In this document: positions 36,746 through 60,000 of the stretch, piece by piece
Numbering within the stretch: the stretch's first letter is position 1
How the letters are laid out: the number at the start of each line of letters is the position of its first letter
Assembly: GCF_030028105.1 (NCBI RefSeq)
Contig: NC_092390.1
Span: 18,016,072 to 18,080,071, forward strand
Reading direction: 5' to 3'
From: Mobula birostris
Lineage: Eukaryota
Length of the DNA: 64,000 nt
Notes under the pieces: model-generated
What the model was told of the DNA's origin: nothing
Databases searched by the model: none
Seen by the model: only the letters and a program-made list of their open reading frames with translations
Made by a program: the position numbers and the translations under genes

Positions 36746-37800
36746 TAAGTATTCTGAGGTGTATGGACGACAGGGATACGGTGAACACGAAGGTGGCTGA
36801 TCGCTGCTTCATCGGCCCCCCTCCTGCAGTTAGCTCTGCCATGGCACTAATCGCATTCACCCTCTGGGTAAGATTCGGAGAGCTCTCGTGCCTTTTCTTT
36901 CAGCTGTGGCCCTAAGTAGCTGCTTGCGGGCGACAGCGGCCACATCCCGATACCACGCCTAGACAAGCGGGCTAAACCAGGCGAGGAGAACCGGCGGGCC
37001 TCACACCTAGATGAGATAGGGACTTGCCTTTTCTAGCATGTGAAGCCATCGCCGGCGGGCTAGACATGTGAGATCTACTGTGAGATCCAACGGCGAGGGA
37101 AGCAGTTCTGCAACGCTCCGCGGAAGCGAAAGGCTTGACGAGGAATAGGAGCCATGGCCACCCAGTGCAACCTAGAAAGACCCCAGTCTGTGACGACTGC
37201 TGGTACCAGTGGACCCGGATTTCCGAGGTCGAGGGTGTGAAACTGCCCCAGTACAACGGCGTTTCCACTTTAAAAGCTCCCCAGCACTGGTCTCCTGTCG
37301 TCGCTGGATACGACGGACAACAAACTCAGAGCCAATTACAGTGACAATCAATAATACTGGAAATTAAAATGTTCTCATCCTTGTCAAGGGTTTTATTTAT
37401 CCCTTGCGGTGCCCAGCAGTCCAGCAACACCTCCATGGTGCCGGTGGACACCCGTTGTTTCCTCTCCACGATCACCGGGCACGGACATACCCCCGGAACA
37501 CCGCTCCTACGCCGGAGCCACTGGCAACATGGATTGGATCTGTCTACAAGAGGGTCACAGCTGAAGTCCTTGTTTGCATTCACAGTTATAGATCGGTAGT
37601 CTCACATCAGTAGAGGCAGCAGGTCACCAACCCAAAATAGGTGACCTGTCCTCCACAGAGAACGGCTTCTCTGTTGAACGTTCCCAGGGCTGTGCACCGC
37701 GGTGCAGGGGTTTAAATTGGAGGACGTTTCATGCTCAGGCCGGAAACCTTACTTCGCCCACGCTGCGCACAAACTCCATTCGATATCCACGCCGGGTCCG

Positions 37801-37913
37801 TCAAAATAAGTAGACGGTTTGGTAGTTTACCTTGTCCACTGTGCAAGCGTATCGATCAATGAGGATAGAGTCTTCATCAAGTTTATCCTCATAATGATGG
37901 AAGTTTTTCCTGG
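37801..37913 (-). CDS. GGH-like gene, last coding exon
   Basis: (A)RKNFHHYEDKLDEDSILIDRYACTVDKVNYQTVYLF*, aligning to human GGH ARKNNHHF...ALIYQFSP...QQCYIFD. Acceptor ctccacag|, phase 1. Confidence 0.9.
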
Positions 37914-37989
37914 CTGTGGAGAGAGCATAGCAGTAAGAGCTGAACAGGATGAGGGCCTGTGTCGTCACAGTACGGAACGACGACAAAGT

Positions 37990-39500
37990 TCAAGGTAAAT
38001 TTATTATCAAAATACATATACGGTTGCTGTTGAGTGCCATAACCCTGAAACTCATTTTCTTGCATTCACAGTATGACAATAGAAAAATTAAACAACGCAC
38101 ACAAGAGAAACAACCAATTGGCAAAATATGACAAACTGTGCAAATAGAAGATAATAATCATCATCATCATCATAACGATGATGAAATAAGAGCGAAACAT
38201 CAAGACATGCGATGAACAGTCCTTGAAAGTGAGTCCATAGGTTGTGGGAACAGTTCAATGTTGGGGTAAGTTAAGTTAACCCCTCTAGTGCAGGAACCTG
38301 ATGGTTACGGGGTAATAACAGTAAGTGTTCCTAAACCTGGTAGTGCGAGTCTTGAAGCTCCTGATGGCAGCAGCGAGAAGAGAGCGTGACCTGGATGGGC
38401 GGGGTAGGGGTGTCCCTGTCGATGGATGCTGCTTTCCTGCGACCGCGTTCCACGTAGATGTGCTCAATGGCGGAGAGGGTTTTACATGTGGAGGGGCGGG
38501 GGCCGGCGTCTGCTCTACAAATTAGCCATGGACAAACAGCTGGTGAAGTAACTTTGAGCTTTGTGGAGATAACAGGGAGGGTAATGAATATCGAGCGTTC
38601 GGTGAAGCCTACAACGCGTTGGCGAGCGTCCACGTTACGGGCTGAACAGGAGGGCAGAGGAGCCAGAGAAGATAGTAACTGGGGTGAAATTCTCAGTGGG
38701 GGTAAGGACGGTGGAGAGGGGAGCTTCAGTCCAAGGGCCGCGGGTTCAACAGGGCTCGGATCTTGGATCCCTGCGCTTGTGAAGTGTAACAATGATTTGG
38801 ATTTTAATGTAGATACCAGAGTAGAGAAGTTTGTTGATAGTGTCAAGGTGGCGAGGGACGTCGGGCTTCTGTATTGAAGACGGTATACTGGGATGCGTCA
38901 GGGTATAACATGTAAGAGCAGGTGGTCCGTGGTAGAGAATTGTGAAACATTTGTTTTACCACAGTTGCGATACTGTGGTAAAAAATAGACAAACATCGAG
39001 TTCGTAATGCTGCAGCATTATAAAACCCTGGTTATACCACACTTGGAATATTGTGTTCAGTTCTGGTCGCCTCGTTATAGGAAGGATGTGGAAGCTTTAG
39101 AGGAGGCGCAGAGGAAATGTGCCAGGATGCTGCCTGGATCAGAGACTAGGTCTTATGGGGATAGTTTGAGCGAGCTCGGGCCTTTCTCTTTGGAACGAAG
39201 GAGAATTAGAATTGACTTGATAGAAGTGTACAAAATGATAAAGAGAATTAACGATTAGACTTATTCCCAGGGAGGAAATGGCTAACACGGGGGCACAATT
39301 TTAAGAAGATTGGAGCAAAGTATGGGGGCTGTCAGAGGTAAGTTTTCTACACAGAGAGTGGTAGGTGCGTGAAAAGCCCTGCCAGTGGTGGCGGACAGGA
39401 GATATATTAGGGGAATTTAAAAACTCTTTCGCACACTCTGAGATCGATCTCAGAGTAGGATAAGAAGTGGACAAAACATTGTGGGCCGAAGGGCATGTAC
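37990..39500. mobile_element. Rex1 (37990-38480 -) and CR1 (38780-39500 +) fragments in the last intron of the GGH-like gene
   Basis: TRTTRFRNTY...PVTIRFL; LQHYKTLVIPHLEYCVQFWSPRYRKD. Confidence 0.8.
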
Positions 39501-40285
39501 TGTGCACAGATTCACTGGGATGGTGCCTGTGGTGCAGCGTGCCAGTTATGAAGAGAGACTGGAGAGGCTGTTTGTTTTCCTTGGAGCGTAGCAGGCTAGC
39601 GGTGGGTGTGGCGGTGGAGTGGCGGCGAGGGTGCATACAAAATCTGGGCCTCCATTCTTTCTGCCAGAGGGAAACCCGTGAGCGCCGAAGCTGACCTCTC
39701 GCTGCCCCCTTCTTCTTCCTCTTAAGCCCATCACATGGTAGGGCGCCGACAGCAGCTCACCCGTCCTGGGACGGTTTGTCCCCAGGTGTAGCCCCTTTTC
39801 TTTGTGTATCCCCTGGATGAAGTCCCCGGAACCACTGTTAGCGTTTCTGTAGATCTGGGTTTTTTACGGAATGGGTTGCTCTCCTCATGCCCGACCCTCC
39901 CCCTTTCGCAGCCGGACTAGAGACCGTCCATTTCCTACTGGTTACTTCCTGTTTCAGCGAAGGTCTTTGATTCCACCCACTGCTAGTGTGTTTGGTGCCT
40001 CTTGGGATAATTTGTTACTGCTGCAATGTTTGCCTTTCGGAATAGGATAGGCCGAGTGATATTTTCTGCAGCCTGCCTTCAAGTTTCCATTCCGCCTCTG
40101 CGCAGACACTGATGAAGACGCGACTGATCACTGCTGGACGGATGCACAGACCTAAAAGGTGTGTTGAGATTATCTCCAGGCTGGACTCCCTAAAAGGGTG
40201 ATTCCCCCGCCTCTCCTGCCTATTCGCCCTCCTCTCCTACGGGCATCGTGTTAAATTGACTCAGACAGTGTTTCTGAAGACTCAC

Positions 40286-40423
40286 CTTCACTGACGAAGA
40301 ACTCGGCCATTAGGAAGGAAATTCTGACTCCGAGGGGACTGTGTGGAATATCCATTCTCTTCTTCCAGAAGTAGCGGTTACCTTCCGGGTGCCATTGTGT
40401 GCCATAAATTGGATATCGGAACG
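40286..40423 (-). CDS. GGH-like exon carrying the catalytic His-Pro-Glu
   Basis: (A)FRYPIYGTQWHPEGNRYFWKKRMDIPHSPLGVRISFLMAEFFVSE; 138 bp, bounded by ttgcag| and |gtgagt. Confidence 0.93.
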
Positions 40424-40712
40424 CTGCAAGGGAAGAGAGCGGCTCAGTAGTCTACCCTGCGCCCTGGAAGTAATGGCAAGTTGCTTAGGAACCCCTCTGA
40501 ACCAAACCCCGGGGCCTTGCCCACCGTAGCTGGGGATCCCCGGGCTTTATCCACACCACACCACACCACACACCCTCTACCATTCTGAGTTTTGTCCCAG
40601 GCACCGGTCCCCGAGAGCAAGAAACCCCACCTTTCAGTGGGGCGGTGGGGCAGGAGAAGAGGGGCACAGCCCCGATCCGATTACCCCCCCCCACCCCCCA
40701 GCCCCGACCTAC

Positions 40713-40806
40713 CTTCCATCGTCGAGACAAAGGTGACTCTCTGCCGGTCCGTGTTGGTGGAGATGACTCGGTAGAACGAGCTCAACTTCTTATTCGCTTC
40801 GAAGGC
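40713..40806 (-). CDS. GGH-like exon
   Basis: AFEANKKLSSFYRVISTNTDRQRVTFVSTME (human [30 protein letters not shown]); bounded by ttttag| and |gtaggt. Confidence 0.92.
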
Positions 40807-41223
40807 CTAAAATTAACGACCGCGTTAGTCCCTTGGGAGAATAAACCCTCACACGCGCCCCCCCCCGGCCCTCCTCCTCCAGTCTCACACCGCAACTAAA
40901 CGCCGACTGCTCCCCAACAGCAGTCTCCACCCTACCCCCGCTCCCCACCCTCCTCTCCCTCACAATCTCTCCCCAACACCACACCACAACCTTTCCCCGC
41001 CGTCAGCCCCACTGTCACACCTCAATGCCACTCCCCGTACTCACTCCTTATCTCACCCCGGTCCCACCCTCTTCTGCCCGTCCGATCTCCCCCTAACATC
41101 ACCTCCCCCACCCAAACACACATACACATACCGTCAGTCCCACCCCGCTCTCACCACCCTCCTCTTCCCATCCCACCCCTCACGACACCCGAGGTCTCAC
41201 TCACCCGCACCCCAAGCCCTTAC

Positions 41224-41330
41224 CTCCAGGGTGAGGCTGTACTTATGGAAGTTACCGGTCAGTGGTGTCTCTGATAAAACTCGCGTCATCTCTGGGGCGA
41301 AATTCCTAAACATTTTACACGATTTCGCTT
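41224..41330 (-). CDS. GGH-like exon
   Basis: (E)[35 protein letters not shown] (human SRMFQNFP...EPLTANFHKWSLSVK); 107 bp, bounded by tttacag| and |gtaagg. Confidence 0.92.
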
Positions 41331-41427
41331 CTGTAAAGTAACGAGACAGAAATCAATGCTTGGCGAGGTGTTGGTGGGGGGGGGGGGATGGGACAGGAGT
41401 AGGGGTGGGGGAGAACGTAACGGGAGC

Positions 41428-44170
41428 GTGGGTAGAGGGAGGAGGACGGTACAGGAGTGTGAGTGGGGTAGGGGCGGACGGTACAGGAGTGTGGGTGGGG
41501 TAGAGGGAGGAGGACGGTACAGGAGTGTGAGTGGGGTAGGGGAGGAGTGTACAGGAGTGTGAGTGGGGTAGAGGAGGAGGGTACACGAGTGTGAGTGGGG
41601 TATGGAGGAGTGTACAGGAGTGTGAGTGGGGTAGAGGAGGAGTGTACAGGAGTGTGAGTGGGGTAGGGGAGGAGGGTACAGGAGTGTGAGTGGGGTAGGG
41701 GAGGACGGTACAGGAGTGTGAGTGGGGTAGGGGAGGACGGTACAGGAGTGTGAGTGGGTGGTACAGGAGTGTGAGTGGGGTAGAGGGAGGAGGACGGTAC
41801 AGGAGTGTGAGTGGGGTAGGGGCGGACGGTACAGGAGTGTGAGTGGGGTAGGGGCGGACGGTACAGGAGTGTGAGTGGGGTAGGGGAGGACGGTACAGGA
41901 GTGTGAGTGGGTGGTACAGGAGTGTGAGTGGGGTAGAGGGAGGAGGACGGTACAGGAGTGTGAGTGGGGTAGGGGCGGACGGTACAGGAGTGTGAGTGGG
42001 GTAGGGGAGGAGTGTACAGGAGTGTGAGTGGGGTAGGGGAGGAGTGTACAGGAGTGTGAGTGGGGTAGAGGGAGGAGGACGGTACAGGAGTGTGAGTGGG
42101 GTAGGGGCGGACGGTACAGGAGTGTGGGTGGGGTAGAGGGAGGAGGACGGTACAGGAGTGTGAGTGGGGTAGGGGAGGAGTGTACAGGAGTGTGAGTAGG
42201 GTAGGGAGGAGGGTACAAGAGTGTGAGTGGGGTAGGGGAGGACGGTACAGGAGTGTGAGTGGGGTAGGGAGGAGGGTACAGGAGTGTGAGTGGGGTATGG
42301 AGGAGGGTACAGGAGTGTGAGTGGGGTATGGAGGAGGGTACAGGAGTGTGAGTGGGGTAGGGGAGGACGGTACAGGAGTGTGAGTGGGGTAGGGGAGGAG
42401 GGTACAGGAGTGTGAGTGGGGTAGGGGAGGACGGTACACGAGTGTGAGTGGGGTAGGGGAGGACGGTACAGGAGTGTGAGTGGGGTAGGGGAGGAGGGTA
42501 CAGGAGTGTGAGTGGGGTAGGGGAGGACGGTACAGGAGTGTGAGTGGGGTAGGGGAGGAGGGTACAGGAGTGTGAGTGGGGTAGGGGAGGAGGGTACAGG
42601 AGTGTGAGTGGGGTAGGGGAGGAGTGTACAGGAGTGTGAGTGGGGTAGGGAGGAGGGTACAGGAGTGTGAGTGGGGTAGGGGAGGAGTGTACAGGAGTGT
42701 GAGTGGGGTAGGGGAGGAGGGTACAGGAGTGTGAGTGGGGTATGGAGGAGGGTACACGAGTGTGAGTGGGGTAGGGAGGAGTGTACAGGAGTGTGAGTGG
42801 GGTAGGGAGGAGGGTACAGGAGTGTGAGTGGGGTAGGGGAGGAGTGTACAGGAGTGTGAGTGGGGTAGGGGAAGAGTGTACAGGAGTGTGAGTGGGGTAG
42901 GGGAGGAGTGTACAGGAGTGTGAGTGGGGTATGGAGGACGGTACACGAGTGTGAGTGGGGTAGGGAGGAGGGTACAGGAGTGTGAGTGGGGTAGGGGAGG
43001 AGGGTACACGAGTGTGAGTGGGGTAGGGAGGAGGGTACAGGAGTGTGAGTGGGGTAGGGGAGGAGTGTACAGGAGTGTGAGTGGGGTAGGGGAGGAGGGT
43101 ACACGAGTGTGAGTGGGGTAGGGGAGGAGTGTACAGGAGTGTGAGTGGGGTAGGGAGGAGGGTACAGGAGTGTGAGTGGGGTAGGGGAGGAGTGTACAGG
43201 AGTGTGAGTGGGGTAGGGGAGGAGTGTACAGGAGTGTGAGTGGGGTATGGAGGACGGTACACGAGTGTGAGTGGGGTAGGGAGGAGGGTACAGGAGTGTG
43301 AGTGGGGTAGGGGAGGAGTGTACAGGAGTGTGAGTGGGGTAGGGGAGGAGTGTACAGGAGTGTGAGTGGGGTAGGGGAGGAGTGTACAGGAGTGTGAGTG
43401 GGGTAGGGGAGGAGGGTACAGGAGTGTGAGTGGGGTAGGGGAGGAGTGTACAGGAGTGTGAGTGGGGTATGGAGGAGGGTACACGAGTGTGAGTGGGGTA
43501 GGGAGGAGGGTACAGGAGTGTGAGTGGGGTAGGGGAGGAGTGTACAGGAGTGTGAGTGGGGTATGGAGGAGTGTACAGGAGTGTGAGTGGGGTAGGGGAG
43601 GAGGGTACAGGAGTGTGAGTGGGGTAGGGGAGGAGGGTACAGGAGTGTGAGTGGGGTAGGGGAGGAGGGTACACGAGTGTGAGTGGGGTAGGGGAGGAGG
43701 GTACAGGAGTGTGAGTAGGGTAGGGAGGAGGGTACAGGAGTGTGAGTGGGTGGTACAGGAGTGTGAGTAGGGTAGGGAGGAGGGTACAGGAGTGTGAGTG
43801 GGTGGTACAGGAGTGTGAGTAGGGTAGGGAGGAGGGTACAGGAGTGTGAGTGGGTGGTACAGGAGTGTGAGTAGGGTAGGGAGGAGGGTACAGGAGTGTG
43901 AGTGGGTGGTACAGGAGTGTGAGTAGGGTAGGGAGGAGGGTACAGGAGTGTGAGTGGGTGGTACAGGAGTGTGAGTAGGGTAGGGAGGAGGGTACAGGAG
44001 TGTGAGTGGGTGGTACAGGAGTGTGAGTAGGGTAGGGAGGAGGGTACAGGAGTGTGAGTGGGTGGTACAGGAGTGTGAGTAGGGTAGGGAGGAGGGTACA
44101 GGAGTGTGAGTGGGTGGTACAGGAGTGTGAGTAGGGTAGGGAGGAGGGTACAGGAGTGTGAGTGGGGTGA
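41428..44170. repeat. G-rich minisatellite of about 2.7 kb (31-35-bp units, with a distal 52-bp higher-order repeat)
   Basis: Unit gtacaggagtgtgagtggggtaggggaggagg (period 32); 43701-44150 alternates 31-bp and 21-bp units. Confidence 0.98.
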
Positions 44171-45248
44171 CGGAGGATCGTGTAGGTGTGTAGATGTCTT
44201 CCTTGGGTACATTCGAAGTGAGTCTTTGCCTTCGATCTGATGCAGTTCTTTTATCTTTTGTTAATTGGCCTCGGGCGGGGGCTGGACCAGACGAGAGAGA
44301 TGGGATTTAAATTGAAGGCTGCGCAACATGAGATCGCCTTGTAGTTGGGAGATTGACCCTGGGGTAAAAGGGTGGGCGAGAGCAGAGTCCCGGGATGAGT
44401 GATCCATCCTCAATGGAGTGAAGAAGAATGCGGTGAAGATACAAAAGCCTGAAAGCACGCACTACCCGGCTCAAGGTAAGGACAGCTTCTATCCCGCTGT
44501 TATCAGACTATTGAATGGCTCCCGACTATAATAAGGCGGACTCACAGTCTAGCTCGTCATGATCTTGCACTCATTGTCTATCTGCACTGCCCTTTCTCTG
44601 TAACTGCATTCTGCATTGTTATTGATTTGCATTGTTCTCCCTCCATGACACTGTAATGCAAGGATGTGTATGAATAGTATGCAAGGCTATACGGGTGACA
44701 AATTAACAAGTTGCCAATTTGGTTTAATAGTTCTGGGGGAGACCGCTGGAGAAGGATACCAAAGGTGTTGTTCTTCCCCCATGAACCGCTTGATTCTATT
44801 CCCGTGTTCCGGAGGCTTGGGATGGAGGTTTCTGTACTAGGATCTTTGGACCCAGAGACAGTGAGTCCTCTGCCGTTCAGTTTATCCAATGGGTTTTCGG
44901 GGAAGGAACCGGATGGTTTGGAAACTGGCCAGGAAGGTGGATCTGGATATATTAGACTCCAGGGTTAGAGTGGCAACTTTCCTGATGCTGTTTGCTTCGA
45001 GCGATGCCCCTCCCACGACCCCGCCTCCTCGACCACCCCTTCAGCTGCCACGCCCTGCCCATAGCCACACCCCCTCTGTGACGCCTCTCACGCTCGCCAC
45101 GCCCCTCTCTAGACCACGCCTCTTCCATGGCATCTCCTCCTCTCTTGTTCCTCTTCTGTCTTGACCACACTCCTTGGCCACGTCCCGCTGACCTCATCTC
45201 CCCCCCCCCCCCACCCCTCATCCCAGTCCCACTCCGGGCGCTCCCTAC

Positions 45249-45387
45249 CGTCAGTGAAATCCAGCGGCAATGCCATGTTGTCACTGTCCGTCCTGCTGAG
45301 CAGATTCTCGCCCGTAGTGAGTGCCGTCAACAGCTGGTGCCCCAGGCACGTCCCCCACACCGGGAAGTAATCGCCCTGGTCACAGGC
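45249..45387 (-). CDS. GGH-like exon carrying the catalytic nucleophile Cys
   Basis: [46 protein letters not shown]; [12 protein letters not shown] is the GGH signature. 139 bp, bounded by cgcag| and |gtaggg. Confidence 0.95.
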
Positions 45388-46553
45388 CTGCGGCGAACAG
45401 AAGTGTGACAGTCAGCCAGACCCTGCACCCAGCCCGGGGAAGCACTGATCGGTTCCTCATGCTCTGGAGACTGGCTGCTAACCCAGTGAACCCCCATCAC
45501 GGCACCGGGGGGGGGGGGGCACCACTACCCCTTCCGTTACACGCCAGCACCGTAAGCAGACCGAGAAAACGGAACACAAAAAATATAGCCCATCCTCGTT
45601 ATCCCAGCCCCGTCCTCCTTCACACCAGACCCACGTTACTTGTTGAAAAGCCACCTGGGTGACAGTGGGAGAATTTAGGACAAACTGGACCACCAAGGTC
45701 TTCTTCATTCAGGGATTGAATCGGGGTGCGGAGTCAGAAAATTGGGTTCCTCGTCTGGACTGAGTCCTAATACCGGATCCAGAATTTCTCCTCACCTCCA
45801 GATGCTACCCGACCGCCGAAGACTTTGTGGTTTCAGCGGATTGAGCTGTTGCCCCGGAAGTCGTTGGCTTGGTTTTGGGCAGACTGTCGGGTGCACACTG
45901 CTTCCGCAATAATTTCGTTCCCTCAACATTGTGAATCAAGAGCGAGGCTGAGGTCTGAGATGGCCCACACTGATGGGACACTAAACAATCTGGGACCCTT
46001 CCTTGGGTTCATAAGACTATAAGACCGTAAGACATAAGACTGAACTAGGCCATTCGGCTCATCGTGTCTTCTGCACCATTTCATCATTATTAATTTATTA
46101 TCCCTCTCAACTCCATTCTCCTGCCTTCTCCCCGTAACCTTTGACACCCTGATTAATCAAGAACCTGTCAACCTCCGCTTTAAATATCCTCAACGACTTG
46201 GCCACCACAGCTGTCGGTAGCAATGAATTCCATCGCCCTCTGGCTGAAGAATTTCTCCTCGTCTTTATTCCAAATCTATGTCCCTCTATTCGGATGCCGT
46301 GCCCTCTGGTCCTAAACTCCCCGCTAAAGGAAATACATCTACTCTAGATCTTTGAAAATTCGATGGAATTCAATGAGACCACCCCACCCCCCTTCATTCT
46401 TCTAAACTCCAGAGGCATCAAACAGTCCTTATATATTAACCCTTTCATTCCTTCTCTGGTCCCTCCGAAAGGAGCAACATACTCCCTTCCCTCGCTTGCC
46501 CGTGTCTGACACACAACCACAGACACCCACCCCTCCCCCGACTCCTGACTGAC

Positions 46554-46638
46554 CTCCACCGCCAGCCTGTAGAAGATGCCGGCCACCCGGGCGAACTCGG
46601 AGTTCTGGAGATCAACGGCGCCGCCAGGGAATAAGATC
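46554..46638 (-). CDS. GGH-like exon (PGG oxyanion loop)
   Basis: (G)ILFPGGAVDLQNSEFARVAGIFYRLAVE; 85 bp, bounded by ttcctcag| and |gtcagt. Confidence 0.94.
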
Positions 46639-47345
46639 CTGAGGAAGAGGGGATCGTGGGTGTGGCTTCATAACACAGTGGCAGCAGCTCGAATGACAAG
46701 GCCCTGGTGGATAACTCCGGCCGGGACAGACCTGGACGCGGCCCGGCGGTGTGAGGGGTGGGGATCTCAAACAGTAACACCGGCGCATTGGCCAGCTCCG
46801 GTTCAACGGGGCGAAGGCGGGTTGGGAGCACCTTTTCGAAGAGCAGGCAAAGCGGAGGAAAGCTGTCCTCGTGGGAAGGGAACAGTACGGTTGCTGCGGT
46901 GTCCCGGCGACTGCTCCTGGGACGAGTAGAACCTGTGCGCTACGGTCACACAGGTCAAACACTGGAGTTAACAGATGGCCCGGACCCGGGGGAGGGGGGT
47001 GGTGGAGTAACTTCAATTCATAAACGCGAGAGATTTGGCAGTTGCTGGAAATCTTAGGGAACAGTCACAAAATGTTGGAATAACTCAAAAGGTCAGGTAG
47101 TTTCTGTGGAGGGGAGTCGACTTTTCGGGCCGAGACCATTTATTGGGGCTGGTCGGATCGTTGACTGACGGATAGTCTACTGTTCATGATAGGAATACGT
47201 GGAGTTGGACTGATGTCCCAGGACCCACCCAGGTGGCTGGAGCGCCGTGCGGACACAGGGACTAAGAGGGTGGGGTGGGAGCAGAGTTTTCGCGAAGAGC
47301 AGAGATAATAAAAGGAGGAAGGGCGACGGATGGTCTAATACCTAC

Positions 47346-47396
47346 CCATTTATTGAGTAAAATAGTTTTTCATATTCAGATTCACTGAGATACAAT
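47346..47396 (-). CDS. GGH-like exon
   Basis: (R)LYLSESEYEKLFYSIN(G) (human RLDLTEKDYEILFKSING); 51 bp, bounded by cttgcag| and |gtagga. Confidence 0.92.
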
Positions 47397-48237
47397 CTGC
47401 AAGAACAACGAACGACTTTCAGTCACAGCCAGTCAACTTTCAGCCTCAGATCTGCCACATTCTCCCCTTCCTAATTCATCCCAAACTAAACCCTATTTAT
47501 CACCCAATTCTCATCTCCTGGATTAAACAATTTCCAAACTGTTCCCCAACCCAATATCAGTTCCCAAACCCGCCTCTCTCCAAACACGTCCCTCGCTTTC
47601 CCATCGCCTCTTAATCCGACAGAGTTTAGCAATGAAAATCTTCTTGATACGGTGATCAATATAGAGTCGCAGCGGCCAATTTCGACACAATAAGGTCACA
47701 GCTGACCTTACCATCCACCTAAACTGTAACCAAGGCCTTAACTGTCGATCACAACTCTGAACCCAACCACTAGTTATAGTAATGTCAATGACCTACCGCT
47801 TTCACTAACAGGTCACCAGTACCGATTCTCAACCACCAACACCACCTTCTGCCTCTTCGCTGAGTCGTTGCTAAACCTGCTATCAACCAATTCAATGCAG
47901 GGTTTCGAAACGGGAATATTTGGGAGTGGGCGGGCTGAGATTCCACACCGCTCCCCGCTCCACCGCCCACCTCCGTGCTCGCCCCCCTGCCGTTTCATCG
48001 ACGCTCCCTTTCCTCGCCCTCCTACTCACTCATTCTCCCGTTCACTCATTCCTCCTCAGTCTCCTCTCACCCTCAGTCCAGCAGTCCCTCACTCCTGCTC
48101 TTCCATCGCTATCTCACTCCTTCACTCTCTTACTCGCTCCTTTCATCCCCTCGCCCTCCCTCTCATTCCGAGTCTCCTCCACGTCCTCGGCAGGTTTAAG
48201 CCCGTCACTTGAGTGAGCTCTATGGGGTAGGACTCAC

Positions 48238-48349
48238 CTGATCACTGCCACTCTGCATCCGGCCGATTCCAGGTGTTTTACGTTGGAAGAGGTCACGTAC
48301 GTCTGGGCCATCTCGGACAGGTGACCCATTGTCTGCTGGGCCAAGATCC
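48238..48349 (-). CDS. GGH-like exon
   Basis: (G)ILAQQTMGHLSEMAQTYVTSSNVKHLESAGCRVAVI(R) (human GILMQ...YIAASYVKYLESAGARVVPVR); bounded by actgtag| and ag|gtgagt. Confidence 0.92.
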
Positions 48350-49102
48350 CTACAGTAAGAGGAAGCGTGAGAGAGCAAGGGCCAGACGACCAGTATCTCA
48401 AAGGCAAGATTTGTCCTCCTGTCACTGAAGGAGGCTGCAACACAGTCAAAATCCACCTGGCAGACGGACGTTCTCCAGAGAAAGGCACAAATATATCGCC
48501 CAATAACTTGGCTTCTGAGGCGCAAGACATGTTTACTAGGACTGTGCTGGGAGTGACGCTGCGCGGGACGTGTTAATAGTCTATGGCCTTTCGCATGGGA
48601 GGGAGAAAGCGGTTCTGAAGCTGTTTTAATTGATTTGGCACAACCGAAGGGCCTGTTCCTGTGCGGTACTGTTCTATGTTCTTAGTTTGGCTTGGGACGG
48701 ACAAAATGTTTCCTCGTGCAGGGAAGAGTAAAGCCAGGCGCTAGGGTAGCTCTAGAGCAAATCACTGCAGATGCAGGAAATCTGAAATAAAGCAGGAACA
48801 GCTGGAAACACTCAGCAGGTCAGGCAGCGCCAGCGGAGAGAAAAAAAAACCTTTTCAGGATGACGTTCCAACAGCTGGGGAGATGCAAGGATCCACCAGG
48901 ACGGGGGAAGATAACCCCCTCTTGTCGTCAATAGCTGTCCCTCAAAACTTCTTTGTTCAGTGTTCTCGGTGTCCCTGCCCCACGGGACTTGGTGTGACTG
49001 CTGCCTCGAGTAGCCCGCCTACCCCCTCAATACCCACCACACACAGTCCTGGAACAATCGCGTTCGGAACATGAACACAGTTAAAGAGCCAACATCACTC
49101 AC

Positions 49103-49134
49103 CTATTATGGGCCGGTCATTCAGAATTCTTTCC
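49103..49134 (-). CDS. GGH-like 32-bp exon (ERILNDRPII-G)
   Basis: ctccacag|g gaa aga att ctg aat gac cgg ccc ata ata g|gtgagt. NDRPIIG corresponds to human KKPIIG. Reading upstream in frame reaches TGA with no ATG, so this exon must be spliced to an upstream one. Confidence 0.88.
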
Positions 49135-49279
49135 CTGTGGAGATTGAAGAGGGTGATTCTGGCTGTGTGAGTCGATTTTTTGTTTGTTTTATATACAAAG
49201 TTTACTCGATGACTACAATATCAGACAAAAGCACACACACACATATATATATGTATACCTATATAAACACACTACGCAC

Positions 49280-49700
49280 AGCTTCAAATTACTACCTGCA
49301 ACACAACCAAGCCCCAGAGGCCCTCCGCTCCCGGAAATCCTGCACTGTTGCCATGGACACCGCGTGCTCCTTCTCCAGGAAAACCGGGCACAGATGTAAC
49401 CCCGGAAAGGGGGATGGGGAGGGCAGGCAATCAGCCTGAGCAGTCCGGTCGACTGTCCGCCGCCTGGAGCTATGAATGGCCATTTTAGCCGGGTCCAGGA
49501 GCAAGAGGTTCAGGAGATTTCCCGAGCGACCCCACCACCCCACCGTGGCAGTGTCTACAGGTGAGGGGCGTGCGGCTGGTGTAACCGGAATCTGAGAAGC
49601 GGCGAGTTCTCAACACAGCCGGGTGGGTGCTCCTGAAGCACAGGAGCACGGGCGTGGACCTGGCTTCGGCAGGGTCCTCTCCACAGGAGATATTACAACA
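49280..49700 (-). mobile_element. Tx1/L1-type LINE 3' remnant
   Basis: NLLNLLLLDPAKMAIHSSRRR...ADCLP; a homologous remnant lies at 52680-53040 (EYERLLPLSEFLRELRLRFWLRFSPALLI). Confidence 0.65.
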
Positions 49701-51017
49701 GGACCATAGGAGTGTTCGACCGCAAGAGGCGAATCGGCCCCTCATCCTCTGACTCATTCCCTGCCACGAGCCCGCACCCCATACACCTATACACAAGATT
49801 CACTTCCTATCACCCTACATTTCCAAAGCTGTTGCGTTCTTTTTTTGAACTTCTAATTTTCGGCGGTTCAGGTCAGATTCAAACTTCTTCAGGAGCTTGT
49901 GGATCCTAGACCGAAGGATGTTAACGGAAACCGCCCCGGTCACCAGGCGGAGAAGGGGGTGGGGGGAGTGCAGCTCCTTCATTCCGGGACCATGACAGTC
50001 AGCAGGAGGGAGTCGGTAATCAACTGGCACACGCCGACTTCTCACTCGCCCGAGGTTCAGCTTATTAAATGGCCCAGGAGGCTCGAGGGGGCGAGTGGCC
50101 TTCTCCTAACATGAATAAATTAACAAGGAAGGGGACGCAGCATGGCCAGATCCGTGCCCCCGGCCTATGGGGCAATCCCCCGTCCCGCTGCGATCACGTG
50201 GCCGCACTGCCACCCCACCAGTCCACGGCCAATCCTCTTTTTCACTTTTAGCCCTTTATTAGTTACATTAATAAATGAATACACAACTACATGGTATAAT
50301 CTGACATCAGACATAAAAATGGATCTCCTGAGGCATTGCTCTGAGATGGGACTACCCCGATAAGACCAGAGATCCGAACAGACAGATAAAACTTGCCGAG
50401 CTATTTATATAATTATTGGTTGCAGAGGACTGTTCCACTGTCTCGGAAACTTATGTCCGCTGTGCCCGTCACGGGTGAGGCTATGCAGCATCCACACCAG
50501 GACCGGCAGACTCAGAACCGGTTACTTTCCCCAAGCAGTAAGGCTGATCAACACCTCCACCCCCTCCACACACCCAACCACCACTACTTGATTTTTTGCT
50601 GCCAGTCGCTTTTTGTACAGACAATCCTGTGCCTAGCGTCATGGACATACAATCATCTATGAATATAAGCTATCTTATATATTTATATTTATTGTGCTTT
50701 TTTTTTAAAAAAAAGTGCTGCATCAGATGCGGAGAATTTCGTTCTCCCTTACACTTGTGAACTAGAAATGACATTAAGCAATCTTGAATACACTACATCT
50801 CCCCTTCACTCTTGAAGCCGGCGGTAATATTTTCACCCGTCGGTGTCAAATTAGGTTTGCAGTTATGTTTTGAAATAACTGAGGTGATTAATTATTTGTG
50901 ATGTTTCGGTTTAATTACAAATCGGACCTGAAATCAATAGATGGATTTGTTTTGTAGAACACCCTGATGACTGGAGGAAGAGAGCTTCACACAGTCCACC
51001 TTTGAACTGATGTTCAC

Positions 51018-51038
51018 CCATAGGGGCCGCTGTTCTGC
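51018..51038 (-). CDS. Candidate 21-nt symmetric microexon of the GGH-like gene (R-QNSGPY-G)
   Basis: Strong pyrimidine tract and acceptor (ttccctcttcctttgttgttgacgttctaaactctag|), weak donor gg|gtgaac; phase 2 at both ends, compatible with the flanking exons. Confidence 0.35.
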
Positions 51039-51448
51039 CTAGAGTTTAGAACGTCAACAACAAAGGAAGAGGGAACACTCCGAAACGTCGACTGTTTACT
51101 CTTTTCCATACATTCTGCCTGACCTGCTGAGTTCCTCCAGCGTTTTGTGTGTATTGCTTTGCATTTCCAGCATCTGCAGATTTGAAAGGAAGGGGGACCC
51201 CAACATGCCACCCACAGTTTTCAGCCATCAAGCACACAGCAACTGTCTGGGCAGCGGCAAAAAAACCAAGGCGTTTTCTCAAAGGACAAATGGTGCTGCC
51301 CAAGGTGGTTTTTCATGGTTCACTTACCATCAGCTTCCCTGACAATCATCACTAAGCGTTTGTGAAATGCAGATGGACCTGTTTCTATATATAAGCACCA
51401 ATCTGGCGCGCCAGAACTACGCACCCACAAATATGAACACAGACATCC

Positions 51449-51990
51449 TGTCACGGTCCGGTCCGATATCCGCATTCAGGTTCACGGTCCGGTCCGTGGA
51501 CTCCGGACTCCGGGTCTTTCGGGTGTCCCTGGTTTTGGTTGAACTTAACCATGAGCACCTGATGCTCATCTTGGAGCTGGGAATATAAGTGGCCCTGGGA
51601 TCGACTGTGGTGGCTGGGTTGTCTAGGCAGTCTTCCCTTGGAGCAACCCACTGGTGGAAGGCTAGTGAAATCACTGGGATATGGATTTCGCTGTTCTGTA
51701 GCCCGCCGAGGTTACCGGCCGCCTCCAGTCTTGGAGCCACCCCTGAACTAGCTCTCTTCCTGTCCCTTGCCTCCGTCGGGTAAGCCAGGCCGATTGCCGT
51801 TACCCTGCAGTTGGTTCTGTCCCTTCCTGTCCCTTGCCTCTGTCGGGTAAGCCAGGCCATTTGCTGTTACCCTGCGGTTGGGTCTGTCCCTCCTTGTCCT
51901 TGCCTCCGTGGGGAGGAGTCCCGCATCCTGCCCAAGAGTTGCCTCGTAGTGCCCTTGCCCCGTTATGCCCTCGTCTAGCCTCGAAAACCC
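51449..51990 (+). mobile_element. Probable truncated solo LTR containing about 61-bp tandem repeats
   Basis: Starts TGTCAC, has a TATA-like aatataag, and carries about 2.5 copies of cttcctgtcccttgcctc(c/t)gtcgggtaagccaggcc...; no 3' CA end identified. Confidence 0.5.
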
Positions 51991-53647
51991 CAAGCCTCGT
52001 CTATTTTTGATATTTTTCCCCTTTGAAGGTTATTTTGAAGATACTGGCCTGGAGTTACACTCTGCCTTTGATTCTTTACGGGAATGGGACCCGCTTTCAG
52101 AGACTCAAGACCGACCACTTTTTGATATCCCAAGGACGTGGCCTGGAAGACTAGCGCGCCCTCAGGGTGCCGGATTTTCGTGGCTCTGGAGATGGGCTGA
52201 TGCAAGGCTAGTGCCCCCGACAGAGGTGTCGCAGGAGAACACGGAAGATCGGAAGCAGCGAGCTAGCTGCCGTGGGCAGAGACATGAGTTTTTTTGGGCA
52301 CAGAGCTCGGAAAAAGCGATGCAACAGATTTTAACACCAGTAATCAGCGAGCTGTTTGTTATGTCTCCCCTCTCGCTGTGAAACGGGGGCACCTGTTTTT
52401 TCCTTATTAGGGAGAGAGAGCCTGTGGTATGTCGAATTACTGAGTGAACGAGTAGTCTTTGGGGTACTGAAGGTATATGTCCTCATTGATGCTCGGTGGA
52501 GCGCGCTAATGCTTTTGAGGGTGGGGTGGGGAGGGAGGAGCTGGGGGAGGGCCTTGAGGTTCTAACGTTTAACTATCATTCATTCTTTAGGGCACTCCTG
52601 TTTTCGAAGAAAAAATAATTTCAGGGTGTATATTGTATGCATTTCTCTGACATCAAATGTTCCTATTGAACCCTATTGAAAACAGTCAATACCCCGGGGC
52701 GCCCATCGCCCCCGGAAGGTCCTCACTGTACCCATCACGACCGCGTTACTCCTTCTCCAAGGACAGCCGGGCATGAACGTACCCTCGGAAAGGAGGCAGT
52801 CGGCCGTCTCGGGCAGCGCCCCCCACTTCCCGCCGCCTAGACCCGTGAATGGCCATCCTGGCCGGGCCCAGGACCAAGCCCACCAGGAGAACCTCCTCAC
52901 GCCCGCCCCTTCCGAGCTCTATATGAGGAGCGCGGGACTGAAGCGCAGCCAGAACCTCAGCCGCAGCTCCCTGAGAAACTCAGAAAGGGGCAGCAACCTC
53001 TCGTATTCCGTGTACCCATGGTACATTGACACCCCCACCTCGCTCCACTCTGGCCCCCTCTCAACTCCAGATCCCTCTCCACCCCTACCTCCTCACCCCT
53101 GACGTACCTCCAAACCTCACCCCTGACCGCTCCCCACCCCCACCTCTCTCCACTCTGATCCTCTCCTAACATTGACCCCTCTCCACGACCACGCGTCACA
53201 CATGACCCATCTCCAGACCGGACTCGCTTCCAACGCCTCAGTTTTCTTCACCCCCTCCTCTCTCTCCATTTGACCCCCTCCCCTACTTCACCCGATTTCC
53301 TCATCCCTAACCCTTGTGCCCACACCTCACCTCTCCCCGCCCCGACGTTCTCGCAACTCCTGAGCCCTTTGAACTCGGACATCCTCCCAAACTCTGATCC
53401 TTTTCAATCTCGACCTCTCCATTCCTGTCCATCTCCCCACTTCTGAGCGAACTTTGCCCGCAGGTTAACCCTCCCTATCGCCCCTCCCACCTACCACAGA
53501 TCAGTCGGCCGGAGGTACTGAACTGTCCAATCTCCCCCTCTCACTGAACAGTGTCTCCCAACCCTCGACAACGACCCCGTTCCCCACGCAGCCCGTCAGC
53601 ACCCGTTGCAGTGGGTATAGGTCACCGGCACCGTAACAGCCTCTCAC

Positions 53648-53664
53648 CTGGTTTGTCTGTTCAT
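53648..53664 (-). CDS. Probable first coding exon of the GGH-like gene (MNRQT-R)
   Basis: gcggccATGaacagacaaaccag|gtgaga: good Kozak, strong donor, and phase 2 matching the 49134 acceptor. There is an in-frame stop upstream. The spliced CDS is 888 nt (909 nt with the microexon), both multiples of 3. Confidence 0.6.
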
Positions 53665-54139
53665 GGCCGCGGTTCCTTCGTGGCAGCACCCGCTCCGATC
53701 AATGGTCTGGGCACAGGCTAATAGCAGCTTAAAAACCTCCCAAACCGGGACACTCCGTGTTACACAACCGCCCGAGGAAACCCCAGCGAAACATTTTAAC
53801 CCTTACTGCGCCCGTTCACTGGACTCCGAGACGTTGCGTGAGGTTATGACGGAAAAGCCACTTCAAATGAATGTGGTAAATTCAGTTCTTATAAGCACCC
53901 TGACATATCTTCCCTCAGGCGGTTATCACATTCTAAAATTAGCAAAGAGGCTGATTACAAAAAAGAGAAAATTGGCAGATGATTGCAATCCAAAACAAGG
54001 ACACACGGGAAATGCTGGAGGAACTCAACAGAGCGGGCAGGACCTGTAGAACAGAGCCAACAGTCGACTTTTCAGGCTGAGACCTTGTTTCGTCCATCGA
54101 ATCTACGCAGGGTCGTTAAACAGAGATACAGTATCTAAG

Positions 54140-54750
54140 GAAGTAGCAAGCTGGCTGGACAAAGGAGAGGCAGTGGATATTATTTACTTGGATTTTCAGA
54201 AGGCATTTGATAAGATACCACACATGAGGCTGCTTAACCAGATAAAATCCTATGGTGTTACAGGAAAGATACTAGTATGCACAGAGGAATGGCAGATAGG
54301 CAGGAGTGGGAATAAAGGTGGTGGTGGGCGGGGGGAGGGCTTTTCTGGTTGGTTGCCAGTGACTAGTGGTGTTCCTCAAGGGTCTGTATTCGGAGGCTAC
54401 TTTTTACATTGTCAGTGATTTGGATAATGGAGCTGATGGCTTTGAGGTAAAGTTTGCAGGTGATATGAAGATAGGTGGAGGGGTAGGTAGTGCTGAGGAA
54501 GTGGTGCGATTGAAGCAGGACTTAGACAAATTGGAAGAATGGACAATAAAGTGGCAGATGGAATACAGTGCCACAGACTGCGGTGGAGGCCAGCTCCGTG
54601 GATATCGTTAAGGTGGAAGTTGATAGTTTCCTGATCGGTCAGGGCATCAAAGGATATGCCGAGAAGGCAGATGAATGGGTTTGAGTGGCATCAGGGATCA
54701 GCCATGATGGAATGGGCTGAATGGCCTAATTCTGCTCCTATGTCTTTTGG
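54140..54750 (+). mobile_element. CR1 RT fragment with an internal deletion
   Basis: VDIIYLDFQKAFDKIPH...VTSGVPQGSV, KFAGDMKIGG. Confidence 0.88.
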
Positions 54751-54859
54751 TGTGATTCGCCTCACTCCCTTGCTCTCCGTATATTATTCCATCAAGTCGG
54801 ACTGAATGCTTTGCACCTGGCCCATTGCTTTTCAGGCCACTGCATCCAAGATATTGTAA

Positions 54860-55080
54860 CAACACCAGCACACCGTTACAAAGTGCGACAGCCCAGCACA
54901 CCATTACTGAGTGTGAGAGGCTGTTCACTATCAGAGTGTGACAGACTGTTCACTATCACAGAGTGTGACATACCAGCACACTGTTATTGAGAGTGACAGA
55001 CTGTTCACTATTACAAAGTGTGATATACCAGCACACTGTTACTGAGTGTGACTGACTGTTCACTATTACAGAGTGTGACA
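54860..55080. repeat. Short tandem repeat with about 54-bp units
   Basis: cagcacactgttactgagtgtgac(a/t)gactgttcactat(c/t)acagagtgtgaca repeated about 4 times. Confidence 0.85.
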
Positions 55081-55569
55081 GGGGCCGTCTCCCCTAACAT
55101 TCCACACATCTGGGATGGGCCGGGGGCTTTCACCCCGCAGATGCAGGGTTCAATAGAAATTTAAAACGCACAGTGAGAGAGAAGCCGTGCAAGTGTTGGG
55201 TGTGACTAGAAGTTAATATGCCAGCTCAGTTGTGTTGTGACGTCTGCTGCCAGAGTCTTGGCTGTCTCGATGTCTCAAGATCTGAAACAGTTGCTCACGC
55301 ATTTGGAAATAACGCACATCCACTTCCCGAGAAAAGTAAATTAATCTCTCTCCCTCCCACAACAAAACAAGACAACAGCAAAGCAAGCTCCTTGCCCCCT
55401 CTCCAACCTACCCACTCTAACACACAGGGTCGCAGTCAGCCGAACGTTGCCGCACAGCCTATCGATTGTGTAAAAATTCTTCCTGAAAAAAATTATTTGG
55501 ACGAGAAATCCATCACAGTGGTCAGTTCAGAATGGCCTTCAGACACCATGAGTCAGGGATTCGATGGAA

Positions 55570-56312
55570 ACTGAGGTTTCCTGAGGAGTCACTGAGATGG
55601 AAAATCTAGTCAGGTGGAAGAAGGCAGCATACATGAGGTTTAGGAAGCAAGAATCAGATGGGTCTATTGAGGAATTTAGGGTAGCAAGAAAGGAGCTTAA
55701 GAAGAGGCTGAGGAAAGCAAGAAGGGAGCATGAGAAGGCCTTGGCGAGTAGGGTGTTAGCTTTCATAAGTCGAGGGATAGAGTTTAAGAGTCGCGAGGTA
55801 CTGATGCAGCTCTATAAAACTTAGGTTAGGCCACACTTGGAGTACTGTGTCCAGTTCTGGTCGCTTCACTTTAGGAAGGATGTGGAAGCATAGGAAAGGG
55901 TACAGAGGAGATCTAACAGGATGCTGCCTGGTTTAGAGAGTATGCATTATGATCAGAGATTAAGGGAGCTAGGGATTTACTCTTTGGAGAGAAGGAGGAT
56001 GAGAGGAGACATGTTAGAGGTATACAAGATATTAAGAGGAATAGATATGGTGGACAGCCAGCGCCTCTTCCCCAGGGTACCACTGCTTAATACAAGAGGA
56101 TATGGCTTTAAGGAAAGGGGTAAGAAGTTCAAGGGGGATATTAGAGGAAGGTTTTTTTACTCAGAGAGTGGTTGGTGCGTGGAATACACTGCCTGAGTTA
56201 GTGGTGGAGGCAGATACACTAGTGAAATTTAAGAGACTGCTAGACAGGTATATGGAGGAATTTAAGGTGGGGGGTTATATGGGAGGCAGGGTTTAAAGGT
56301 CGGCACAACATT
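55570..56312 (+). mobile_element. Internally deleted CR1 (endonuclease-RT linker fused directly to the C-terminal region)
   Basis: ...RKARREHEKALASR joined to VLAFISRGIEFKSREV...HLEYCVQFWS; the RT core is missing. Confidence 0.85.
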
Positions 56313-56314
56313 AT

Positions 56315-56597
56315 CAGACTTCACCAACGAGCACCAGGACCTCATTTGCTGAAGGTGAGAGAAGTCCCAGCCAGAGCCTTCGTGTGCTGTTGAAATCTCA
56401 CTCTCAACTCTAAGGATGGCCGCTGCGGGGAGGAGACGGTCACCCACCTCTCTGCAGACTGTGGACCTGCTGAGAGGTGGGTGACCGTCTCCTCCCCGCA
56501 GCGGCCATCCTTGGAAGGATGAACAAGTCCTTGTCTCAGTTCATCCCGAGCAGGGAGCTCCGTGACTATACCCTGTTCCCACGGACGGACAGGGGAC

Positions 56598-56635
<38 letters not shown>

Positions 56636-56850: not shown

Positions 56851-57004
56851 GCAGTGGTGCTACATACACAAACATTTACTCACTACTAATATACCGAACT
56901 GACATTGAATGTACAGACTGAACAACACCACAAACCTAAAGAGCCATACACTGCGTTTTTTCTGTCGTACTTGAATACAGATTTTATTATGTATAAAATT
57001 TACT

Positions 57005-60000
57005 GGACTTCCGGGGTCGGGTATGGAGTGAGTCGGTGCGTGTGAGTGTGGCTCCCGATTTTTATTGAAAATCTACCTGTTTATCTTTGCCGTATGCTCG
57101 AGATAACTGAATATTTACCATTGTGAACAACGCGGGACATAGCTGGACATTGAAATGGCCAGTAGAATGTACCTTCGGAGTAAAACTGGGGAAAAAGATA
57201 GCGAAGCCTGAAGCAAGAAGGCGGATGTTACAGTAATGGCGCCGTTGCACGCTGCTGGACCTGGACCCGGCCGTGCGCTACCCGATGATTTGGAGAGGCT
57301 TCGTTTAGTACTTATTACTGACATGACGCAAGCGGTGCATTCTGCCTTAAAAAGAGAAGTTGAAGATGCTTTATCACCAGTGAATGCTACCATGGAACAA
57401 ATTATGTCTGCTTACGAGTCACACGACCAACGCATTCGTGGGGTTGAAGACGGCCTGAATGATTACAGTGACCGACTGGTGAGCGCCGAAGCCGCCATTG
57501 CAGCGTTGCAGAGCGAAAACGCGTTTCTGAAGGGAAAGCTAGATGACCACGAAAATCGGTCGCGGAGATCCAATTTGAGAGTGGTCGGCATTCCTGAAAA
57601 TTTGGAAGGTTCGGACCCTGTTAAATTTATGACCGAGTTTTTTGACGAAGTGCTGAGGATAATTTTCGCGTGCTCACCGAGTCGGACGTAAACCATCCGG
57701 TGTCGCTGGAGCCAAGCAAACGAGACCAAGAATGTTCCTGGTTTGCTTTCTCTCCTTTCAAGATAAGCAACGCATCATCAACAGACGGAAGCAGGAGCTG
57801 TATTTCCGCGGACACCGCGTGTTTTTTTATGAAGATTTTAGTGCGGAGCTGGGTAAAAAACGAGCAGCTTTCAAGGAGGTGAAATCCCTGCTTTACGGGA
57901 AAGGGGTCCGGGTCGTGCATGACGGTAAAAAACATTATTTCCATACACCAGAGGCGGCCAAAGAGTTTTACCATTCGCGCTGGGGAGAAGAAGAACGAGA
58001 AGAGCAATGACTTTTTTTTAGGTTATTCATGCAGCATGGAAGGGGCCTCATGCCGAGGCAAATTGTTAATTTTCACAATCCACTTCTCTGTTCATTTTTT
58101 CCAGTTTAATTTGTGGAACGCGATCGGGTCAAACTGCTATGCTGCCGAAACTGATTAACAAAAACTTTCAACCAGCAAAATGTAAATATTTGGGATCTGT
58201 ATCTCGGTGTTTAAGTTGCCCAGTGTGTTTTGTTTTGTTTTTAATGCTTAGCTTGACCTGTGTCATCTTTAGCCTATATGTTATATTAAAGGTAGTATAA
58301 GTGATAGGATAAATGTTAAGGAGGGGAGCCACCCTCGATTAGATTGAAAGTTGGGTTGTATGGGGAACGCCTTGGAAGTTTTTTGTTGGGTACTGCCTGC
58401 GATCATCCTCAATTGGGGAGGTAGATCTAGGTTTCGGGGTTTAATTGGGTTGTTTTGTTTGCGTAAAGGGGTGGGGGGAGTGTTTTGGGGGATTACCATG
58501 GCTGTTTATTCTTTTGTGTGTTACGGATTGATCAGACTTTCTTTTCATTGTGCGTTATTATGTGCAACTTACGCCCTCGCACTGTTTTGGATTGTAGGCC
58601 CTGTGTGCCTTTTGATATGGTTAACGTGAGTGCTGCTGATGGAGGCCACCCTGTGAGGTTTATTTCTTGGAATGTAAAGGGGCTCAATGGTCCGGTTAAT
58701 AGAGCTAAAGTTTTCTCTCATCTGAAACAATTAAAAGCAGATATACTATTTCTACAAGAGACACATTTAAGAGTGGAGGACCATAATAGACTTCGTAAAG
58801 CATGGATTAGTCAGGTTTTTCATTCCAGATTTAATAGTAGGTCCAGGGGGGTGGCAATATTAATCACCAAAAGAATGCAGTTCACACCATCTGATGTAAT
58901 CAGTGACTCTAATGGTTGCTTTATTATAGTCTCTGGCTCTCTCTTTCAAATACCTGTTATTTTGGTAAATGTTTATGCTCCTAATTGGGACGAAGTCCAA
59001 TTTGCAAATAAGGTTTTGTCATTAATACCTAACCTGAATACACATAAGCTAATCTTTTCCGGAGATTTGAACTGTGCTATTGACCCACTGCTTGATAGGT
59101 CTTGCCCTAGGGGAACATTTTCTGGTATGGCAAAGGCCTTCTCGATGTTTATGCTACAAAATGGTTATATGGATCCTTGGAGATTTTTGAATCCATCAGT
59201 TAGGCAATTCTCTTTCTTCTCTCATGTTCACCGCTCCTATTCCAGGCTAGACTATTTCTTTATAGATAACTCCTTGATACCTATGATTAGACAAATTGAA
59301 TACACTGCTATAGTTATATCTGATCACTCGCCCGTGAAACTGGACCTATGTTTTCCTTTAAACGTTAGAGAACGGCCTCTGTGGAGACATAACCCCCTTT
59401 TGCTTTCTAATGAGAAATTTTGTAGTTATATATCGGCTAACATTGACACATTCTTCGAGACTAACAAAACTGAGTCGGTATCGTACTCTTTACTTTGGGA
59501 AACTTTAAAAATTTACTTGAGGAGTCAAATAATATCTTATACTTCACATGCCAATAAAGAGTGTAGGAAGGAAATGCAAGTGTTATTGCAATCTATTTGG
59601 GACCTGGATAGAAAATACTCTAAGGCACCCACTGTGGAATTATATAAAAACCGGGTTGATTTGCAAGCGAAGTTTAATCTTCTATCTACAAACCTATCAG
59701 AACAATTAATTCTTAAGACACGTGGCCTCTATTATGAATATGGTGACAAGGCGAGCCAGCTTATGGCTCATCAGTTGAAACGTCAAGCTGCATCACGACT
59801 TATTCCCCAGATAAGAGACATGCACCAGAACTTGACAAGCAATCCAAAAGAGATTAATAACATCTTTGCAACTTTTTATTCCTCTCTGTATGCCTCAGAG
59901 TTCCCCTCAGATAAAACAAATATGGAATGTTTTTTAGATAATTTTGAAATACCAACTCTTGAACCAGAGGAAGTGGAGAACCTAGATCGGGCTCTTGGGC

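Follow-up and report, generated by a model that had tools for sequence, protein, structure and literature searches.

The window considered here is a 64,000-nt stretch of the genome of the ray Mobula birostris (NC_092390.1, positions 18,016,072 to 18,080,071), and it carries a gene related to those of vertebrate gamma-glutamyl hydrolase (GGH), referred to below as the GGH-like gene. Ten minus-strand exons, all bounded by AG/GT and consistent in phase, yield 888 nt coding for 295 amino acids and a stop codon. The product corresponds letter for letter to RefSeq XP_072095803.1 (Mobula birostris 'gamma-glutamyl hydrolase-like isoform X2'), in agreement with the original prediction, made from the window alone, of ten phase-consistent exons and an intact 295-aa frame. 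The gene is a real, conserved and unstudied variant of a known enzyme, and its product is probably a cytosolic gamma-glutamyl hydrolase of family C26.

Coding exon 1 (53648..53664, 17 nt) supplies the Met and four further residues, with a good start context and a phase-2 donor (CAG/GTGAGA). It is single-copy, has an in-frame stop upstream with no ATG in between, and lies in a region (53000-53900) where the observed/expected CpG ratio is 0.85-0.90, compared with 0.53 across the window. Exon 2 (49103..49134, 32 nt) encodes the first strand, NDRPIIG; as had been claimed, it cannot be extended upstream to an ATG, a stop being reached before any in-frame one. Exon 3 (48238..48349) encodes Asn39 and His42, at positions where canonical and HPEV-type GGHs (families distinguished below) have Tyr and Tyr/Phe, respectively. 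Exons 4 (47346..47396) and 6 (45249..45387) have lost the ancestral sequons of residue 56 and residue 142, respectively; exon 6 also encodes the nucleophile Cys113, and the PGG oxyanion strand lies in exon 5 (46554..46638). Exon 7 (41224..41330) encodes His174, aligned to human His171, and exon 9 (40286..40423) encodes His224 and Glu226, followed by Gly227 in place of the Lys of canonical GGH. Exon 8 (40713..40806) and the coding part of exon 10 with the stop codon (37801..37913) are placed by splice sites and phase. The putative 3′ untranslated region (37378..37800) contains AATAAA at 37397.

The N-terminus of the protein has a hydropathy of -1.71 and no signal peptide by the criterion used below, and not one N-x-S/T occurs in its 295 residues, both as originally described. 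In alignment with human GGH (1L9X), the positions of the human sequons read RLA, DFT and AFE, as had been stated; the fourth falls at about Asp285 (DKV), adjoining the KVN given for it. Zero sequons would arise by chance with P = 0.12 for a protein of this composition (20,000 shuffles), so that their absence from a single protein has little meaning alone and the signal comes from the clade.

Expression was examined in contig sets that were guessed to be RNA, no run being recorded as such. Five of these sets contained 0.06-0.11 of the words, and four were aligned to 44900-58000, which spans exons 1-6. Contigs of 1.07-1.34 kb in three of the four aligned sets, all from one study, match exon 6 with 0 mismatches; exon 3 is likewise matched with 0 mismatches, and in one contig the spacing from exon 3 to exon 6 is 137 nt, exactly the spliced distance. 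No exon piece occurs among the rows listed for run X5 (organism B). The longest contig (contig 16, run X4), when its length is projected on the exon model, would end near 37378, 19 nt beyond the start of AATAAA; beyond exon 2 it continues upstream for 50 nt, a length that would fit the 17 coding bases of exon 1 plus 33 untranslated ones. The RNA check that had been proposed for the gene thus shows spliced contigs across exons 3-6, from which the gene appears to be expressed, but not the 53648-49134 junction itself.

An alternative first exon (57173..57393, minus strand), used by RefSeq isoform X1 and missed when a single first exon was proposed, adds 73 residues and has a weak donor (AAG/GTACAT). 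Isoform X1, with 363 aa, is outside the set of 16 clade proteins scored below, and a model of this kind is found in Mobula birostris only among the species listed. Its exon lies at the 5′ end of a young long interspersed nuclear element (LINE), antisense to it; all 40 scored genomic matches are 95-100% identical, out of 158 candidates (at least 40 copies). This L1-like, nearly full-length element (57020-62060, plus strand; endonuclease and reverse transcriptase domains, ORF2 fragmented) lies 3.4 kb upstream of the gene, and the LINE-antisense first exon recalls the antisense promoter of L1. Isoform X1 is treated here as minor, and its entry into the endoplasmic reticulum (ER) may occur. Separately, 49 in-phase ATG-to-donor candidates for an upstream leader exon were listed over 49135-64000; none makes a convincing signal exon, in a search restricted to donors close to the consensus, which did not pick up the X1 exon.

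A search of the genome with exon 6 returned three loci, namely the GGH-like gene, a copy of HPEV type on C9 (136.33-136.36 Mb; L004-L007, L016) and a copy of the canonical HPEK type on C1. Both paralogues have nine coding exons, and in both the hydrophobic leader and the first strand share one exon. This is the organization that had been stated for vertebrate GGH, and it makes the extra 5′ intron of the GGH-like gene, correctly singled out in the original prediction, specific to that gene. The proposed check for a separate canonical GGH therefore uncovered two leader-bearing genes, by which the secreted functions are covered. From these structures, exon 2 would be the surviving 3′ part of the ancestral leader exon, and exon 1 would replace its signal-peptide part. 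No tandem GGH copy was seen in the 60 kb past the end of the window. Searches with CALHM, Neuralized and CRAL-TRIO revealed no neighbour common to the GGH-like locus and the C9 copy, so an origin by whole-genome duplication is neither supported nor excluded; one CRAL-TRIO match is found at 0.9 Mb from the C1 copy, a weak indication.

Protein searches gave orthologue models in 20 species (9 batoids and 11 sharks). What might have been an oddity of one genome is thus an elasmobranch-wide clade, already annotated automatically as 'GGH-like'. The PIIG motif is present in 25 of the 28 clade rows inspected, the exceptions being the S. canicula model and two Logan fragments, and short isoforms or fragments were left out (P0081, P0085, P0088, P0089, P0010, P0076, P0275, P0004, P0097-P0100). 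In 23 of these 25 rows a Met precedes the PIIG proline by 13 residues, isoform X1 and Pristiophorus alone lacking it at the usual spacing, and the domain is sequon-free in 20 of them. The short charged start with Met at the conserved spacing, described first for Mobula, recurs in 18/20 shark and ray species.

Phylogeny with GGH and fish GGH-like paralogues, suggested as a check, gave a separate clade. In a tree of 34 hand-picked rows, the leaderless clade has support 100/100 and forms with the HPEV-type vertebrate family, its nearest relative, a clade (100/99) separate from canonical HPEK-type GGH; a quick tree of 71 rows shows the same grouping. The gene is therefore a GGH paralogue, as anticipated, but its parent is the HPEV-type family and not human-type GGH. 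The free tree places the leaderless clade beside all HPEV-type genes (95/90) on a long stem branch (0.40), and nesting among the HPEV-type genes of cartilaginous fish is not rejected by the approximately unbiased test (p-AU 0.30). On these trees the duplication is older than the separation of sharks and rays, and could be either older or younger than the split of jawed vertebrates. The best 120 hits of two full-length searches (1002 and 1456 hits in total) contain no member from outside the elasmobranchs, and none for Heptranchias or holocephalans. Between Mobula and Heterodontus, identity is 68% for the leaderless gene, 75% for the HPEV type and 68% for the canonical type, and between shark orders it is 84-85% for the leaderless gene against 87-88% for the secreted paralogue; the leaderless gene would thus be under ordinary constraint, similar to that of the canonical gene. 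The HPEV-type family itself, known here from database annotation, comprises proteins from sharks, chimaeras, ray-finned fish, coelacanth, lungfish and amphibians; none of the retrieved members comes from an amniote. Skates have 2-3 copies of the leaderless gene (proteins P0009, P0086, P0102, P0087, P0280); one copy type has the Tyr-to-Asn and Tyr-to-His changes of myliobatiform rays yet groups with the other skate copy, which suggests convergence.

The loss of leader and sequons was quantified in full-length proteins (290-345 aa, both catalytic motifs) from those retrieved, i.e. 16 clade proteins from 14 species, 112 of HPEV type and 88 of canonical type. With a crude threshold for a leader (best 9-residue Kyte-Doolittle value of at least 1.9 before the PIIG motif), leaders were found in 0/16 clade, 91/112 HPEV-type and 79/88 canonical-type proteins. 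Sequon-free proteins number 12/16 in the clade, 0/112 in the HPEV type and 3/88 in the canonical type, these three being Alosa proteins that are leaderless too. The joint loss proposed for Mobula thus extends across the clade. None of the 16 clade proteins retains the ancestral site at residue 56 or that at residue 142, and the sequons of the remaining four sit at new positions, as expected if they are neutral. The mean Cys count is 4.8 in the clade, compared with 1.4 and 1.7 in the two secreted families, which is weakly indicative of a reducing compartment, where a raised count is expected. Peroxisomal targeting signals (PTS) were also sought: PTS2 had no match in 11/11 tested proteins, and no PTS1-like end was seen.

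The protein belongs to the GGH fold. Pfam Peptidase_C26 matches over the whole profile with 50.6 bits (cut-off 20.5), and the AlphaFold model has a mean predicted local confidence (pLDDT) of 88.5, a template-modelling (TM) score of 0.92 and a root-mean-square deviation of 1.6 to human 1L9X. The triad Cys113-His224-Glu226 aligns to the human and zebrafish triads and is invariant in 16/16 clade proteins. Gln21, Tyr34, Gly77, Val79, Phe173 and His174 are kept. The Lys after HPE is replaced by Gly227 in Mobula, by Ala/Gly throughout the clade (16/16) and by Val in the HPEV-type family, and the change of Glu114 to Gln is common to clade and HPEV-type family. The equivalent of human Tyr36 (residue 39), Tyr in all 200 canonical- and HPEV-type proteins, is Asn in 8/16 clade members (myliobatiform rays and one skate paralogue lineage), and throughout the clade Tyr278 is replaced by Asp and Gln291 by Thr/Ile/Ser. 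Lys223, Tyr36 and His171 presumably bind the substrate in human GGH; residue numbers were also taken from a docking study (PMC12710020). Two canonical features, the Lys after HPE and the Tyr36 equivalent, have given way to Gly227 and Asn39. By its model the protein is a C26 member of the GGH structural family, and it departs from canonical GGH in leader, sequons and orthology. In the sections of PMC12958103 that bear on it, the C26 triad is described as conserved and essential in C26 enzymes.

Taken together, these observations are consistent with the following scenario. A vertebrate gene of HPEV type would have been duplicated to give the elasmobranch paralogue, and the leader-coding part of its exon 1 would then have been replaced by the splice acceptor and new 17-nt upstream exon seen today. 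Its product would no longer enter the secretory pathway and would act in the cytosol, and without ER entry the glycosylation sites, freed from selection, would have decayed in the pattern observed. Following the chemistry of the family, Cys113 would attack a gamma-glutamyl amide, with His224/Glu226 and a thioester intermediate. The relocalised C26 enzyme of the original prediction is supported by the computational checks that were run, from which we infer location and substrate, and a cytosolic location is quite probable.

Several observations weigh against this scenario. The 16 clade proteins are relatives, so a Fisher P of 8e-14 overstates the evidence, which amounts to about two independent events, and the RefSeq models, coming from a single pipeline, are not entirely independent from one species to the next. 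Hemitrygon and Hypanus proteins have two sequons each. In teleosts, 15 of 17 HPEV-type models inspected are leaderless (298 aa), with an internal Met at the same spacing, while keeping 2-5 sequons, so a leader missing from a model may reflect an isoform or an artefact. The exon 1-2 junction is not displayed in the RNA-like contig tables, which are dominated by repeats, and therefore rests on comparative evidence; the 50 nt of contig 16 located 5′ of exon 2 are not assigned to sequence, and the runs were guessed to be RNA, one being flagged as probably DNA. Finally, isoform X1 reaches a hydropathy of 2.23 over 9 residues and one of 1.45 over 19 residues, where true leaders score 1.66 and 1.69. 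As to the teleost HPEV-type genes themselves (P0155, P0204, P0208 and others), many have a Met in the leader cleavage region, and dual-localised isoforms or artefacts are possible.

Some of these points would suit a protein that is still lysosomal or extracellular by way of a leader exon missing from the annotation, the isoform with the LINE-derived start or secretion by a non-classical route, an unlikely alternative given that the X1 exon is the antisense of a young LINE in one species among those listed and that sequons were lost across the clade and once more in clupeids. Its support lies in the moderately hydrophobic X1 extension, the junction missing from the contigs and the 44-75 extra N-terminal residues of some skate models; however, these extensions are not signal-like and the conserved Met is kept. 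A decaying or non-catalytic duplicate (a pseudogene in progress or a folate-binding pseudoenzyme) could be read from the stem branch of 0.40, the faster change of myliobatiform and skate copies, the frameshifted or low-quality Pristis model and the lack of a member for Heptranchias and holocephalans among the best 120 hits. It appears very improbable in view of open frames with an intact triad in 16/16 proteins from 14 species, of the identities between shark orders and of the RNA-like contigs.

For the preferred reading of a cytosolic C26 hydrolase, the choice of substrate is closer. Because the scaffold is that of GGH, folyl- or para-aminobenzoylglutamate (pABG) polyglutamates are the first guess and, by analogy, quite possibly the substrate, being slightly favoured over another gamma-glutamyl amide. 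The latter is nearly as likely, because of pocket drift and of the folate loss that excess GGH causes in zebrafish. That the substrate has changed to glutathione or its conjugates, gamma-glutamyl amines or dipeptides, or glutamine, as in plant GGP1 and bacterial PuuD, is a real though lesser possibility, and a stronger one in the ray enzyme than in its shark orthologues. It would account for the pocket changes at the Lys after HPE, Glu114, the Tyr36 equivalent, Tyr278 and Gln291; but the Lys and Glu changes occur also in the secreted HPEV family and do not track relocation, the six pocket residues listed above are retained, and both in fold (TM 0.91-0.92 to human and zebrafish GGH, about 0.5 to PuuD and GGP1) and in sequence (48-51% against 11-18% identity) the protein is far nearer to folate GGHs than to those two enzymes. 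Cytosolic C26 enzymes with such substrates do exist, according to portions of PMC12958103. An unrestrained cytosolic folate hydrolase would moreover be costly, to judge from the part of PMC8277299 reporting that induced GGH depletes folate in zebrafish.

Compared with known systems, the GGH-like protein resembles vertebrate GGH (EC 3.4.19.9, MEROPS C26; human 1L9X, zebrafish 4L7Q) in fold, triad, His171 equivalent and the eight internal intron positions. Unlike it, it has no signal peptide, no sequons, an extra 5′ exon, a replaced Lys after HPE and about 49% identity, and its gene belongs to a different paralogue lineage. Canonical GGH is a homodimer. The HPEV-type family has in common with the clade Gln117, Asn228-Arg229 and an aromatic residue at 176, but differs by its leader, by its sequons (at least two on average) and, for the Mobula gene, by its nine coding exons on C9. 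The clupeid leaderless GGH-like proteins (Alosa, Sardina; P0020, P0092-P0094), known from RefSeq protein models, also combine a short charged start, 0-1 sequons and an intact triad; they derive from the canonical HPEK lineage inside teleosts, and the loss of leader and sequons in the herring family is thus independent of that in elasmobranchs. Escherichia coli PuuD is cytosolic and performs C26 gamma-glutamyl amide chemistry, and with a TM of about 0.5 to the model it is an analogy only. The same holds for Arabidopsis GGP1 (11-18% identity), for which portions of PMC12958103 describe cytosolic C26 chemistry on gamma-glutamyl amides.

A cytosolic location is not established for GGH in vertebrates. 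The novelty would be less marked in the light of older work, which reportedly found conjugase activity in the cytosol of rodent tissues and alternative leaders among mouse Ggh transcripts. In the open literature, subscription journals being mostly uncovered, no account of a leaderless elasmobranch paralogue was found; the sole mention, in an excerpt of PMC8792474, is an outlier single-nucleotide polymorphism with a BLAST match to an Amblyraja GGH-like mRNA, the paralogue not being determined. As far as the available text of a 2019 review goes (PMC6363433), known GGH is lysosomal or secreted only and is the only known folate deglutamylase, which polyglutamates reach via an unidentified lysosomal carrier. 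One tentative and somewhat doubtful proposal is that a lysosomal folate deglutamylase gave rise to a cytosolic one twice, once in sharks and rays and once in herrings. If true, natural cytosolic GGHs would be exceptions to the rule on compartment and offer a convenient means of asking what purpose the lysosomal step serves. Trimming of folyl- or pABG-polyglutamates would take place at their site of synthesis, with no need for the lysosomal import on which mammals are thought to depend, and the enzyme would directly counteract FPGS in determining folate retention. If instead the substrate has changed, the gene would mark an unknown gamma-glutamyl pathway in cartilaginous fish. The analysis also exposes a second vertebrate GGH family, the HPEV type, whose members are often labelled simply GGH in databases.

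Elsewhere in the window, two two-exon CALHM-family genes lie in tandem downstream of the GGH-like gene (11148-12952 and 27120-32199, minus strand), and another CALHM pair occurs on C3. HAT-repeat-like exons (225-1803, plus strand; weak Pfam hit) resemble the last part of PDCD11/RRP5, which in humans lies next to CALHM2. Intron 6 of the GGH-like gene holds a 2.7-kb minisatellite (41430-44168) of about 85 copies of a 32-nt unit, strongly G-skewed on the plus strand. Fragmented reverse transcriptase/RNase H frames (34221-35359, plus strand) presumably belong to a Gypsy-type long terminal repeat retrotransposon.

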